Assembly: GCF_055900595.2 (NCBI RefSeq)
Contig: NZ_JBVWEU010000010.1
Direction: 5' to 3' (one strand)
Length of the DNA stretch: 4,996 nt
Source: a plasmid
Below, one piece after another: positions 496 through 4,575 of the stretch. The notes below the pieces were generated by a model. That model worked only from the letters and a program-made list of their open reading frames with translations. It made no database searches and was not told the origin of the DNA. How positions within the stretch are numbered: position 1 is the stretch's first letter; each line of letters begins with the position of its first letter. Position numbers and translations under genes: made by a program.

Positions 496-1554
496 ATGGC
501 GATCTATGCCGTATGGAATAACAAGGGTGGTGTAGGGAAAAGTTACCTTACTTTTCAGTTAGCCTCTGAATATGCCAGACAGAACCCTACTAAAAAGGTC
601 CTGGTGGTTGACCTGTGCCCACAAGCGAACTCGTCCTCTATGTTACTTGGTGGAATGATAAATGGCGAAAACACACTAAACCAGATTCATTCAGCAATAC
701 AGAGAAAGACAATATCTGGATATATTGAGGATAGGATCAGAAGTCCATATATTCCTACCAACACTGGTTCTAGCTATGTAATAAATGTATCTACACACAA
801 TAGTAAAGTTCCAAATAATCTATATCTTGTCACTGGCGATGAACAATTAGAACTCCAAGCATCAAGAGTTGTTGGGGCATCATTTCCAGGTCCCCATGAT
901 GCATGGCGTACTGTTCACCTCTGGATTAATGATTTAATCAGTGACATTTGCAACTCATGGAATAATGAAGATAGCTGCGTATTCATTGACTGCAACCCTA
1001 GCTTCTCTATTTATACAGAGTTAGCTTTAACCGCAGCAGAGCGCCTTTTAATTCCTTTCTCTGCCGATGGTTCATCAAAGAGAGCAGTTAAGGCTGTACT
1101 TTCTTTAGTTTATGGTGAGCGTCGCCATCAGAATGAACCACAATCAGATTTCTATCTTAATAGCAATCGTTATTCTATGTCGCTACCACAAATATATATG
1201 TATGTTGGAAATAGATTAACGCAAATGAACAATTCATCTGCCAGTGCATTTAAGACGGTAGTAACCGAAATTGGTGATGAAATTTGGAAAGTATGGCAAA
1301 CAAAACCAAGTCTGTTTTGTATTCACCCAAATGGGAGCTCAACGCCAAATAATAAAAGATCTTTCAGGAATATGTTTCAGTATGAAGTAAATGATGCAAA
1401 CACAGCATCTGTCGTATCTGGAGCCTTAGGTATTCCAATCGCGACATTAACTGCAGGAAATAAAACTGTTTCAGGAAAAATAATAAAGGTTAATCAGACG
1501 CAGCTAGATAAACAAGTCCCCAACATTGTAGCTCTCGCTGGTATGATCGAATAA
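496..1554 (+). CDS. ParA/MinD/Soj-superfamily P-loop ATPase, 352 aa, with ~90-aa C-terminal extension of unknown function
   Basis: ATG preceded by AGGAG (484-488, 7-nt spacer). Deviant Walker A KGGVGKS at residues 10-16 (nt 523-543); ParA-type VLVVDLCPQANSS segment; Walker B-like CVFID (nt 976-990) followed by NPSFSIYTELALTAAERLLIPFSAD. Long uninterrupted ORF ending at a strong intrinsic terminator. AT-rich compared with the backbone. No symbol assigned because the specific family is not recognised. Confidence 0.85.
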   Translation: MAIYAVWNNKGGVGKSYLTFQLASEYARQNPTKKVLVVDLCPQANSSSMLLGGMINGENTLNQIHSAIQRKTISGYIEDRIRSPYIPTNTGSSYVINVSTHNSKVPNNLYLVTGDEQLELQASRVVGASFPGPHDAWRTVHLWINDLISDICNSWNNEDSCVFIDCNPSFSIYTELALTAAERLLIPFSADGSSKRAVKAVLSLVYGERRHQNEPQSDFYLNSNRYSMSLPQIYMYVGNRLTQMNNSSASAFKTVVTEIGDEIWKVWQTKPSLFCIHPNGSSTPNNKRSFRNMFQYEVNDANTASVVSGALGIPIATLTAGNKTVSGKIIKVNQTQLDKQVPNIVALAGMIE

Positions 1555-2690: not shown

Positions 2691-2727
2691 AACTAGCTTT
2701 AGAAATGTCTACCTACTTCACAGACGA

Positions 2728-2755
2728 ATTTACCATAACATCCGTTTTTCGAACC
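2728..2755 (-). other. XerC/XerD-type site-specific recombination site (cer/dif-like, 6-bp central region), site 1
   Basis: Minus-strand reading GGTTCGAAAAA-CGGATG-TTATGGTAAAT (11-6-11). The XerD arm is identical to the cer XerD arm TTATGGTAAAT; the XerC arm matches consensus GGTGCGnAnAA at about 7 of 11 positions. Shares an identical 20-bp core (aatttaccataacatccgtt, 2727-2746) with site 2. Confidence 0.6.
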
Positions 2756-2760
2756 ATAAT

Positions 2761-2778
2761 GGCAGGCTATAGCCTGCC
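2761..2778. repeat. Perfect 18-bp palindrome ggcaggctatagcctgcc
   Basis: The sequence equals its own reverse complement; lies between Xer-like site 1 and the stop codon (2784) of the 134-aa minus-strand ORF. No strong T-run, so a terminator role is uncertain; could be a protein-binding site. Confidence 0.5.
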
Positions 2779-2783
2779 GTAAT

Positions 2784-3188
2784 TCACCGGAAAAAATCAT
2801 CCACAGAGTCGCTCCACTCATGCCCGGAAAGAGACCACACCTTGTTTATAGGGGGAGGATAACCACTCCTGCAGTACCCGTTTTTTCCCACGAAATCGAA
2901 TGCCCCGTGCGGGTATCCATTGATCAGGAGTACGCACTTCTGACTGTCTTCTGACCAGCCAATTTTAACATCAGAAGGAATGTGACCGTCTGAAACGTCT
3001 TCGGCATTGTAGATGTGTACTGCGTCCATAATCGGGTTTCCCTCGACGGACTCATCGAGCGCATAGAAATACCCGGTCCGGCCATCGTCTTCGAACACGG
3101 CGGCCAGCATGCCCTCAGGAGCGAGGCTCTTTATAACCTGTTCCTCCCCGACAACGAGCTGGGCCTGTATCGTCACTAAAATGGTCAT
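2784..3188 (-). CDS. Hypothetical protein, 134 aa, GC-rich, cargo of the Xer-bounded cassette
   Basis: ATG at 3188 with AAGGAG about 10 nt upstream on the minus strand; the ORF fills almost all of the interval between the two Xer-like sites. No motif recognised. The overlapping 70-aa minus-strand ORF (3115-3327) is judged spurious. Confidence 0.6.
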   Translation of the reverse strand: MTILVTIQAQLVVGEEQVIKSLAPEGMLAAVFEDDGRTGYFYALDESVEGNPIMDAVHIYNAEDVSDGHIPSDVKIGWSEDSQKCVLLINGYPHGAFDFVGKNGYCRSGYPPPINKVWSLSGHEWSDSVDDFFR

Positions 3189-3245
3189 CAGGTCTGTTCT
3201 CCTTTCCTTGGTTGCTTCGGCAGCCAGCTTTCAGACAAGCGGATA

Positions 3246-3273
3246 ATTTACCATAACATCCGTTATCAGCATC
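3246..3273 (-). other. XerC/XerD-type site-specific recombination site (cer/dif-like), site 2; candidate plasmid multimer-resolution site
   Basis: Minus-strand reading GATGCTGATAA-CGGATG-TTATGGTAAAT; central region and XerD arm identical to site 1, XerC arm about 8 of 11 to consensus. About 300 bp of GC-rich sequence with no credible ORF lies on its XerC side (3274-3580), where cer-type accessory sequences would be expected. Confidence 0.6.
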
Positions 3274-3594
3274 GTCAGAAACGCGCTGAGGGCGTTTCTG
3301 ACGGGAAACCGGTAAAACAGGCAACAAACCACCCGAAAACCCGCCAGAAACGCGCAGGCTCTGTTTTTATGGCATGCATGAGTATGCACGCAAGTGCATA
3401 GCGCGAATATTCACGCCATTCAGACAGGGTAAGTCCTGTTTCCGGCGTTCTTCCCATCCGAAAACGGTGAACGGGGACGCAATTTATTGCGTGGCCGTGA
3501 AGCGTTGCCGGCGCAGCCGGAAAACCGGTTTTCAGCACGTTCAGGAATCGGGTTCGTCGACGGCCGGCAATCACGTTATGGCAAGTCGCCGGAC

Positions 3595-3784
3595 GACTCA
3601 CCACACGATTCACCGGCGACTCTGCACTAGAGTCGTACCTAGAGTCGCCGCGACTAAAAAACAACCAAACGGGGAGTCGGGTCTAGAGTCGGGTCGTTAT
3701 TAACTCATTGTTTTTATAGCCCTGAGTCGTTACCGACTCTATGACGACTCGCCGGGGACTCTATGACGAGTCGTCATAGAGTCG
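3595..3784. repeat. Array of 12 GAGTC/GACTC motifs (11 as the hexamer GAGTCG/CGACTC), including two pairs of tandem 12-bp repeats and nested inverted repeats
   Basis: Counted directly: GAGTC at 3630, 3642, 3674, 3686, 3724, 3768, 3779; GACTC at 3595, 3618, 3735, 3746, 3757. Tandem ctagagtcg at 3627 and 3639; tandem gagtcgggtc at 3674 and 3686; 13-bp gactctatgacga at 3735 and 3757 (direct) and 3771 (inverted). Chance expectation for a 5-mer on both strands in ~190 bp is under 1. Confidence 0.7.
3757..3783. repeat. 27-bp perfect palindrome gactctatgacgagtcgtcatagagtc (13-bp arms around a central G)
   Basis: Every position i pairs with position 28-i; sits at the end of the GAGTCG array, immediately before an AT-rich stretch (3786-3860). 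Confidence 0.75.
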
Positions 3785-3982
3785 GATCTATATAAATAAA
3801 ATTTAAAAAACGAAATCTCAGGAAAGTAAACTACTGATATTAAATACAAATCTGCAAAATTTTAATTTTGCGTGGGGTGTGGGTATTTTTAGTGGTGAGG
3901 AGCGTTCAGAGATCTGACTATTTTTGGGAAGGTTCAGGAACTCCCCGGGATGGCCGGAGAGGAAAACTGAAGCATGACAGGG

Positions 3983-4384
3983 TCAGGATTTTTTCCAGAA
4001 TTTCCACCATGGCGCCGGGGATTCAGTTAATTTTGCCTGGTGATTTTCAAGAAGGAGCATGGCCTGTTTCAGGCTGTCAATGTGCGAATCTTTGGACAAA
4101 AGTAAAGTGTTCAGGTGTTCAATCTCCTGTTTCAGATGACGAATCACCTGTTCACACTGGTCAACAGAGGCTGTATCGCGCTGTTCAGAGACCTGTCCAG
4201 AATGGTGTTCACCCTTCAGTTGTTCAAAGGGACCAAAGACACGTAAAAGCTCTGAAGTATCTACCATTTTTGCATTGCGCTCACCGCTACAGGTGGACAG
4301 GTCACCTGCTTTAATTAACCTGTGCAGTGTTGTTCTACTCTTACCCGTCAGTCGGGCTGCCTCACTAATAGACACTCTGGCCAT
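3983..4384 (-). CDS. HTH DNA-binding protein (excisionase/MerR-like HTH_17-type N-terminus) with C-terminal coiled-coil-like region, 133 aa
   Basis: N-terminus SISEAARLTGKSRTTLHRLIKAGDLS fits the excisionase-family HTH pattern (EAAxLxGxSxxTxxRLIxxGxL); the C-terminal half is heptad-like and Q/E/L-rich. Start ATG overlaps the rop stop (TGATG at 4382-4386), implying co-transcription and translational coupling. Its antisense 148-aa ORF is Arg-rich and judged spurious. Confidence 0.7.
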   Translation of the reverse strand: MARVSISEAARLTGKSRTTLHRLIKAGDLSTCSGERNAKMVDTSELLRVFGPFEQLKGEHHSGQVSEQRDTASVDQCEQVIRHLKQEIEHLNTLLLSKDSHIDSLKQAMLLLENHQAKLTESPAPWWKFWKKS

Positions 4385-4575
4385 CAGTTACCATCCTGTA
4401 ATGCATCCAGTCTCGAGGACAGTGTACGGAAAAGATGCTCCGCATCATCGTGGAGTTTCTCACAAAGGTCGGCCTCGACATCAAGATCAAGCTCGTTAAG
4501 CTTCTCCAGCAGGAGCAGAGATTGATGCTGGATGAATTTAGCCATGTTCAGCGCTGTTTTCTGTTGTTTCGTCAT
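4384..4575 (-). CDS. rop: Rop/Rom RNA I-RNA II interaction modulator, 63 aa
   Basis: Translation MTKQQKTALNMAKFIQHQSLLLLEKLNELDLDVEADLCEKLHDDAEHLFRTL... closely matches ColE1/pMB1 Rop (MTKQEKTALNMARFIRSQTLTLLEKLNELDADEQADICESLHD..., recalled from memory), with identical length of 63 aa; located just downstream of the origin in replication direction. Confidence 0.9.
   Translation of the reverse strand: MTKQQKTALNMAKFIQHQSLLLLEKLNELDLDVEADLCEKLHDDAEHLFRTLSSRLDALQDGN

Follow-up and report, generated by a model that had tools for sequence, protein, structure and literature searches.

A probable cer/mwr-type multimer-resolution site with an Rcd-type hairpin on a common small ColE1-type plasmid

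Multimer-resolution sites of the cer/mwr family are defined by (i) a core of 28–30 bp, (ii) ~180–200 bp of accessory DNA on the XerC side of that core, (iii) an ArgR site whose position is fixed, and (iv) PepA binding without a recognisable motif (PMC2699498, PMC2655662, 10.1101/2024.04.05.588136, PMC5357621). Both cer and mwr require ArgR as well as PepA, and their ~180-bp accessory sequences adjoin the XerC site (PMC2699498, PMC2655662, 10.1101/2024.04.05.588136). The accessory DNA of cer also encodes rcd, an RNA of ~70 nt that forms a single stem-loop (PMC4393325, PMC5357621). In the ColE1 family the orientation of the site follows a rule: read-through from RNAII arrives first at the ArgR/PepA side, and rcd runs in the direction of RNAII (PMC2831885). 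Phasing of A/T tracts at ~10.5 bp has been reported for cer-like sites (PMC2831885). In E. coli kept at normal osmolarity, mwr is a poor resolver of dimers, and a weak ARG box is part of the reason (PMC2699498). The Xer modules of Acinetobacter have cores without accessory sequences (PMC7399989).

The window analysed here, a stretch of 4,996 bases, is a complete small ColE1-type plasmid that is matched end to end, at 99.3% identity, by plasmids of 4991 bp hosted by Klebsiella, Enterobacter, and E. coli. It is a very common small plasmid of Klebsiella and the Enterobacteriaceae. The annotated genes encode a ParA-family ATPase (496–1554), a DUF6530 protein, a DUF2251 protein, an HTH protein, and Rop (4384–4575, minus strand). 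An Rfam scan of the whole window (E ≤ 1) returned RNAI (RF00106; 177–278, plus strand) as the sole real match, left 3274–3580 empty, and reported no Rcd-type family. Two Xer cores, referred to as site 1 and site 2, are found in the window. An earlier note on this DNA had proposed that a GC-rich stretch beside site 2 (3274–3580) may be cer-type accessory sequence, which would make site 2 the true multimer-resolution site. The stretch is GC-rich, with 55.0% versus 45.1% for the whole window, and the proposal gains support, with corrected boundaries, from accessory homology to mwr, CloDF13, and cer. Positions 3246–3453 of the minus strand, comprising a core and ~180 bp of accessory DNA, very likely constitute the plasmid's resident multimer-resolution site, of the cer/mwr type, with its function assigned by homology.

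The Xer core of site 2 (3246–3273, minus strand) is 28 bp long, reads GATGCTGATAA-CGGATG-TTATGGTAAAT, and has the layout expected of the family, with two 11-bp arms around a central region of 6–8 bp. Its XerD arm, TTATGGTAAAT (3246–3256, minus strand), is identical to the XerD arm of ColE1 cer at 11/11 positions, and its XerC arm, GATGCTGATAA (3263–3273, minus strand), agrees with dif and CloDF13 at 8/11 positions and with cer at 7/11. The central region of 6 bp, CGGATG (3257–3262, minus strand), was placed by alignment to mwr (CAGATG) and CloDF13 (GGGATG) and is identical in site 1. Read along the minus strand, the order is XerC arm, central region, XerD arm, which confirms that the interval in question lies on the XerC side of site 2. 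One residue of the core counts against an efficient site: position 2 of the XerC arm, which is G in at least 90% of 30 cer-like sites, is A in site 2.

Site 1, GGTTCGAAAAA (2728–2755, minus strand), is a bare Xer core made up of a XerD arm (2728–2738), a central region (2739–2744), and a XerC arm (2745–2755). Like site 2 it spans 28 bp, and the XerD arms and central regions of the two cores are identical. A 20-nt direct repeat common to both (2727–2746 and 3245–3264, 518 bp apart) covers the central region of site 2. A third Xer-like arm, TTATGGCAAGT at 3576–3586, with 2 mismatches, was rejected: chance alone should yield three matches of this quality (50/200 shuffles), and visual inspection showed no plausible XerC arm at a distance of 6–8 bp.

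The accessory sequence assigned to site 2 occupies ~180 bp on the XerC side of its core (3274–3453, minus strand) and was recognised by homology to studied sites. The comparison set consisted of records of experimentally studied Xer sites, of which mwr, CloDF13, and cer are ArgR/PepA-dependent and psi is ArcA-dependent. Global alignment of the 180 bp gave 165/180 identities (~92%) with mwr of pJHCMW1, 120/180 with CloDF13, and 113/180 with ColE1 cer, at z values against shuffles of 27.5, 16.8, and 10.7, respectively. The psi site of pSC101 reached 92/180 identities with a z of 1.0, and had no blastn match in the accessory part. By blastn, the minus strand of the window matches the mwr region of pJHCMW1 at 90% over 263 bp (3246–3507), the CloDF13 site at 76% over 157 bp, and ColE1 cer at 71% over 98 bp. 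In the alignment to cer, psi, and related accessory regions, which the earlier note had itself suggested, cer, mwr, and CloDF13 are thus homologous to the stretch and psi is not similar. In large plasmids the matches extend no further than 3453, covering the core plus 180 bp. The label of accessory sequence, first given to all of 3274–3580, consequently holds for 3274–3453 but not for 3454–3580, which is a different, highly conserved segment.

In the multiple alignment, the ARG box of cer, GTTGCATAGGTATTCATA, stands over window positions 3390–3373, CGTGCATACTCATGCATG. This ARG-box homologue (3373–3390, minus strand), with the core TGCAT-N4-ATGCA, is a presumed ArgR site that aligns column for column with the ARG box of cer. 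The distance from its centre to the XerC arm is 108 bp, equal to that in mwr and CloDF13; in cer it is 106 bp. The consensus score of the homologue, 10/16, is not significant by itself, as the window has 342 matches at 10/16 or better; the cer ARG box scores 12/16. A de novo scan with the consensus WNTGAATWWWWATTCANW is, with that many matches, not discriminating, so the call rests on positional homology and not on motif strength. The earlier note had recognised no canonical ARG box, and on this point it is to be amended: a homologue is present, and it overlaps the first of two palindromes described there. That palindrome, TATGCAC-GCAA-GTGCATA, does stand at 3383–3400 and is composed of the left half of the ARG box and an inverted ATGCA half-site 6 bp upstream. 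The second, GAATATTC, is also real, but its position is 3405–3412, one base off the 3404–3411 given for it. The half-site columns are nearly invariant over the 30 cer-like sites (C14, A15, T18, G19, and G23–T26). At one column the C of mwr is replaced by T in the ARG box of the window. A C-to-T change has been engineered into the ArgR site of mwr, and the product, termed 'mwrT', serves as a working substrate (PMC7399989); the column in question is probably the one altered there. Given this T, the ARG box of the window is probably better than that of mwr.

By analogy with cer and mwr, ArgR would bind the ARG-box homologue at 3373–3390 and PepA would bind the DNA on both sides of it. As expected of the family, recombination would need XerC and XerD alongside ArgR and PepA and would be confined to direct repeats within a single molecule. 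Between the ARG box and the core, A/T tracts are phased at ~10–10.5 bp, with centre spacings of 11.5, 10.5, 11.5, 8.5, and 11 bp; their periodicity power was reached by 3.5% of 1000 dinucleotide shuffles (p ~0.035). RNAI lies on the plus strand, which places RNAII on the minus strand. Along the latter the ARG box comes first, followed by the hairpin, the XerC arm, and the XerD arm, such that RNAII read-through meets the ArgR side first, and the orientation of site 2 relative to RNAII obeys the published rule for the ColE1 family. Every family feature that can be checked in the letters was found, and the site 2 element is on these grounds assigned to the well-known cer/mwr family.

The hairpin in this series is of the Rcd type (3286–3358, minus strand) and is co-directional with RNAII. 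Its 14-bp stem pairs 3340–3353 with 3292–3305, and its loop holds a 15-nt block, GGGTGGTTTGTTGCC (3320–3334, minus strand), that is identical to that of ColE1. Scanning 100,044 species genomes with the block GGGTGGNTTGTTGCNNNTTTTA yielded 48 loci, most of which have a XerD arm 78–79 nt downstream of the block, and 30 distinct sites were aligned. The block served as the search query for these 30 sites, and its invariance among them is by construction. RNAalifold of the 30 cer-like sites gave the 14-bp stem (window positions 3353–3340 with 3305–3292), with compensatory changes in 8/14 pairs. In the stem, 99.3% of the cells are paired, and the observed covariation was reached by 0/500 shuffles; as a control, sliding the partner by 1–3 columns brought pairing down to 36–60%. 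Four stem sequence types, those of ColE1, CloDF13, mwr, and L043, occupy the same columns, and G-U pairs, which are frequent, occur on the minus strand only. Folding energies are −34.5 kcal/mol (z −4.65) for the RNA of this strand and −26.0 for that of the plus strand, and the shape of the hairpin matches that of ColE1 (fold z −5.35). Between CloDF13 and ColE1 the 15-nt block differs at 2/15 positions, in agreement with the 86.7% given in the literature for the conserved Rcd 15-mer (PMC5935869). Sequence, position, and covariation together identify the hairpin as a putative homologue of rcd. In ColE1, the Rcd RNA delays cell division while dimers persist. The earlier note had held that an RNA with covariation in the interval would speak against accessory DNA, and to the letter such an RNA is present in the 14-bp stem. 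The accessory reading nevertheless stands, because cer-type sites encode Rcd RNA in their accessory DNA (PMC4393325, PMC5357621).

A candidate Pcer-like promoter may lie at 3364–3389 (minus strand), where GTGCAT and TAAAAA are separated by 14 bp; it overlaps the ARG box. ColE1 has TTGCAT and TAAAAT at these columns, 15 bp apart, a motif that we infer to be Pcer and that fits the reported spacer of 15 bp (PMC5935869). The 14-bp spacer at the Pcer-equivalent hexamers makes expression of the Rcd-like RNA uncertain. A scan of 3150–4000 found neither a sigma-70-like promoter nor an intrinsic terminator; it accepts promoter spacers of 16–18 bp only and is uninformative for those of 14–15 bp. A U-tract terminator is absent after the Rcd-type hairpin. 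A second, perfect hairpin with a 12-bp stem (3273–3303, minus strand) abuts the XerC arm, has no U-run after it, and shares one arm with the Rcd stem, with which it competes. The 17 bp adjoining the XerC arm (3274–3290) differ from mwr and from most relatives. These unusual 17 bp and the competing 12-bp-stem hairpin count against the main reading, namely that site 2 is a resident resolution site of the cer/mwr type.

The interval holds no ORFs other than overlapping ones, on either strand, namely ORF129 (129 aa; 3275–3664, minus strand), ORF109 (109 aa; 3374–3703, plus strand), and shorter ones, with an arginine content of 12–15%. That it encodes a protein, in either ORF129 or ORF109, is very improbable. 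Both frames are open in the window, some database records show a 'hypothetical protein' over the homologous stretch, and ORF109 is intact in 2/7 relatives, with 11/20 variable sites at codon position 3. Yet stops or frameshifts break ORF129 in 7/7 relatives and ORF109 in 5/7, no overlapping ORF of the interval matches a Pfam family at E ≤ 0.1, and none of these ORFs, including the two named, has a Shine-Dalgarno sequence in the 20 nt upstream. Both ORFs also span the accessory region, the spacer beyond it, and the array of TraM sites, which have separate evolutionary histories, and the conservation is explained by the DNA and RNA features instead. The description of the interval as noncoding, with arginine-rich overlapping ORFs that lack ribosome-binding sites, is borne out by the Pfam search, by the lack of Shine-Dalgarno sequences, and by the broken frames of the relatives.

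Outside the 180-bp accessory unit follows a conserved spacer (3454–3589) with an imperfect palindrome at 3458–3511. Conservation of the spacer is ~98–99% even in a set of relatives with strong divergence from position 3620 onwards. In pJHCMW1 and pLAO95 (to 3507) and in pEc42_4 (to 3553) the spacer accompanies the resolution site, and elsewhere it accompanies the oriT block. Folding of 3454–3560 as RNA gave no signal (z −0.34 and +0.17), and tblastn with the TraM of IncFII(K) found no traM remnant in 3400–3590 (nothing at E ≤ 10).

An orphan IncF-type oriT is located at 3590–3905. This borrowed oriT should let resident conjugative plasmids mobilise the window plasmid.

It is highly improbable that the whole of 3274–3580 belongs to this neighbouring oriT and not to the Xer site, as could be thought from the beginning of the F-type oriT at ~3590 and from some plasmids that contain 3460–3600 but lack the cer-like part. 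The stretch homologous to the IncFII(K) oriT is limited to 3590–3905, and 3274–3453 is homologous to cer/mwr accessory DNA, which already excludes the oriT reading there. The part from 3454 to 3553, in turn, travels with the resolution site in plasmids without this oriT.

The XerC side of site 1 is taken up by a coding sequence, as the earlier note had it: the 134-aa ORF found there (2784–3188, minus strand) encodes, by Pfam, a DUF2251 protein. On alignment, this flank has no homology to cer, and no ARG-like box stands at the expected distance from site 1 (best 8/16). The 518 bp between the cores are exactly what sets plasmids of 4991 bp apart from their sister plasmids of 4473 bp. The latter have one site, whose left flank is that of site 1 (299/300) and whose XerC arm and accessory flank are those of site 2 (300/300). 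The DUF2251 unit is also present, at 96.8% identity, in the Leclercia plasmid pCOL314-5, which has a different backbone with mbe genes and in which the unit lies on the XerD side of its own, different cer-like site. Taken together, the comparisons with the sister plasmids and with pCOL314-5 point to site 2 as the resident site and to site 1 as a bare hybrid core left by insertion of a cassette. The DUF2251 cassette measures 518 bp (2747–3264, minus strand), with a boundary register that is ambiguous within the 20-nt repeat. Judged from these sequence comparisons, site 1 is the apparent scar of an Xer-mediated DUF2251 insertion on the XerD side of the resident site, and, having no accessory DNA, it should not support selective dimer resolution.

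The same evidence bears on the reading in which both Xer cores are equivalent, for example as FtsK-activated 28-bp sites, and the flank of site 2 is irrelevant. The two 28-bp cores with their identical XerD arms and central regions would agree with it, and FtsK-dependent recombination has been shown for 28-bp sites only (10.1101/2024.04.05.588136). The equivalence is improbable, however: that same survey associates the Xer sites of small plasmids with accessory DNA, and its tested example depended on PepA (10.1101/2024.04.05.588136). In the plasmid studied here, the flank of site 2 is a conserved accessory region whereas that of site 1 is coding sequence, and single-site relatives always keep the XerC arm and flank of site 2. 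The view that the two sites are not functionally equivalent is upheld by the lack of cer homology beside site 1 and by the site 2 arm and flank at the single site of the 4473-bp relatives.

A resident site may also be a decayed or inefficient relic, with stability provided by copy number or by the ParA-family gene (496–1554), and for site 2 this is a rather unlikely reading. In its favour, mwr in E. coli grown in standard broth is too inefficient to stabilise its plasmid (PMC2699498), and a related site of Salmonella, fpr, is called deficient in a title cited by that paper. The XerC arm of site 2 also departs from a nearly invariant G, and its ARG box scores 10/16. On the other hand, the accessory region, the ARG-box half-sites, and the hairpin have remained intact, with strong conservation in thousands of plasmids. 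The T that replaces the C of mwr, compared with 'mwrT' (PMC7399989), probably makes for a better ARG box than that of mwr, and the single-site plasmids of 4473 bp keep exactly site 2.

With site 2 as the resident resolution site, two further ideas can be put forward tentatively, at somewhat less than even chances. One is that the DUF2251 unit is an Xer-mobilised cassette that enters ColE1-family plasmids of enterobacteria next to their resident cer-type sites, on the XerD side; the other is that the naturally 'repaired' ARG box makes this allele a variant of mwr that works more efficiently and is less sensitive to osmolarity. If the former is true, gene shuffling of the kind seen with pdif modules would occur outside Acinetobacter. 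Because only one of the two bracketing cores has kept its accessory DNA, excision between site 1 and site 2 would run against the topological filter of ArgR/PepA; the plasmid would then hold on to the cassette and still resolve dimers at site 2.

The site 2 element leaves the knowledge of Xer recombination unchanged. It provides a correct annotation for a stretch that pipelines leave blank or label 'hypothetical protein', on a plasmid that is built like ColE1 and appears to use the XerCD, ArgR, and PepA of the host at a single full resolution site. As side observations, the Xer-inserted cargo gene and the borrowed IncF oriT suggest plasmid evolution by module swapping at a few hot spots.

Among the known systems, mwr of K. 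pneumoniae pJHCMW1, which is ArgR/PepA-dependent and osmolarity-sensitive, shares with the window the replicon cluster ColRNAI_rep_cluster_1987. It agrees with the window in the length of the central region (6 bp), in the XerD arm, in where the ARG box lies, and in the Rcd-type hairpin. The differences lie in (i) the XerC arm, GGTGCACGCAA in mwr versus GATGCTGATAA in the window, (ii) the central region, CAGATG versus CGGATG, (iii) the 17 bp by the XerC arm, which in the window form a new hairpin, and (iv) the second, bare core that the window carries 518 bp away.

ColE1 cer resembles the window in its XerD arm (11/11), in the accessory DNA on its XerC side, in the identical 15-nt block, and in the same orientation to RNAII. 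Its hairpin, which has the same location, differs by compensatory changes, and its ARG box is at 106 bp versus 108 bp in the window. In contrast to the 6 bp of the window, the central region of cer has 8 bp, and the accessory identity amounts to only 113/180. The candidate promoter hexamers of the window (GTGCAT, 14 bp, TAAAAA) are weaker than those of cer (TTGCAT, 15 bp, TAAAAT), and, unlike in cer, no U-tract terminator follows the hairpin of the window.

The most similar core is that of the CloDF13 site, also called parB or crl, with the XerC arm GGTACCGATAA and the 6-bp central region GGGATG; past the ARG box, however, its accessory DNA cannot be aligned with that of the window. The ArcA/PepA-dependent psi site of pSC101 has a 28-bp core, a central region of 6 bp, and XerC-side accessory DNA, as does site 2, but this accessory DNA is dissimilar to that of the window and psi uses ArcA and not ArgR.

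The arrangement around the DUF2251 gene has its likeness in the pdif modules of Acinetobacter, in which a gene is bracketed by directly repeated Xer cores and the module core is without accessory DNA. Presence/absence polymorphism and the occurrence of the DUF2251 module in a second backbone add to the resemblance to Xer-flanked modules, and the module may also be likened to the Xer-site exchange proposed for small qnrB19 plasmids of the ColE1 type. The window differs from these modules in that its cargo is a DUF2251 gene and not a resistance gene, and in that one of the two bracketing sites is, by all appearances, the plasmid's own full cer-type site.

In an alignment of 30 distinct cer-like sites (window 3246-3290), the accessory DNA of the mwr type, named for the Xer site of Klebsiella pneumoniae pJHCMW1, is almost unchanged, while the XerC arms are many and different. 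Beside this near-identical accessory DNA, the central regions are 6, 7, or 8 bp long, and the XerD-side flanks are likewise many and different. A breakpoint at approximately position 3279 is seen repeatedly in database matches. The plasmids with such sites seem to be frequently reshuffled through recombination at or near the core. The underlying loci, recovered by scanning species genomes for a conserved 15-nt block of these sites, include some on short contigs in assemblies filed under Streptococcus, Corynebacterium, Bradyrhizobium, Microbacterium, or Segatella and in a variety of MAGs, which most likely reflect contamination by enterobacterial or cloning-vector plasmids.

Window 2727-3264 holds the DUF2251 gene (CDS at 2784-3188 on the minus strand) as a 518-bp cassette with directly repeated Xer cores on both sides. 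Sequence comparison with 4473-bp sister plasmids, which do not carry the cassette, reveals an exact gap. A Leclercia ColE1-family plasmid with an unrelated backbone carries the cassette at 96.8% identity, again on the XerD side of the host plasmid's own cer-like site. Large Klebsiella plasmids have a DUF2251 gene that is 84-85% identical, the match being confined to window 2761-3188 and devoid of Xer arms.

Between the resolution site and oriT lies a segment (3454-3589) with ~98-99% conservation, containing a palindrome at 3458-3511 and GAAAACCGGTTTTC near 3520-3533. It is tied to mwr-type sites in several backbones, and at one locus (L035) its counterpart lies 60 bp farther away from a diverged cer-like site. 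RNA folding of this segment yielded nothing significant.

The adjacent orphan IncF-type oriT (3590-3905) contains a GANTC array and a nic region. GANTC, the TraM-binding motif of pED208 sbmA (PMC3159463), occurs 13 times in window 3590-3790, compared to 0.76 expected. The nic region, AAATCTGCAAAATTTTAATTTTGCGTGGGGTGTGG, shares a 35-nt identity with the traM-to-SLT intergenic region of the IncFII(K) plasmid p18-29mcr-8.2, and the oriT part of the window is matched by ~2900 conjugative plasmids. Relaxase and traM are both absent from the plasmid, which mobility typing designates "non-mobilizable"; despite this typing, it should be mobilisable by IncF helpers. When window 3620-3850 is compared with four loci from related plasmids (L047, L039, L020, and L031), the positions of the window forms GAGTC/GACTC hold other GANTC variants (GAATC, GATTC) or GACTT, with flanks that are still 98-99% identical. 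These variants look like allele-specific sets of TraM sites, each suited to different F-like helper plasmids.

Elsewhere, the plasmid encodes a 352-aa ParA-family ATPase (496-1554, plus strand) with no adjoining ParB-like gene, and a 133-aa HTH_17 protein (3983-4384, minus strand) directly downstream of rop. The rop gene itself lies on the same strand as RNAII, whereas in pBR322 it occupies the strand opposite RNAII.
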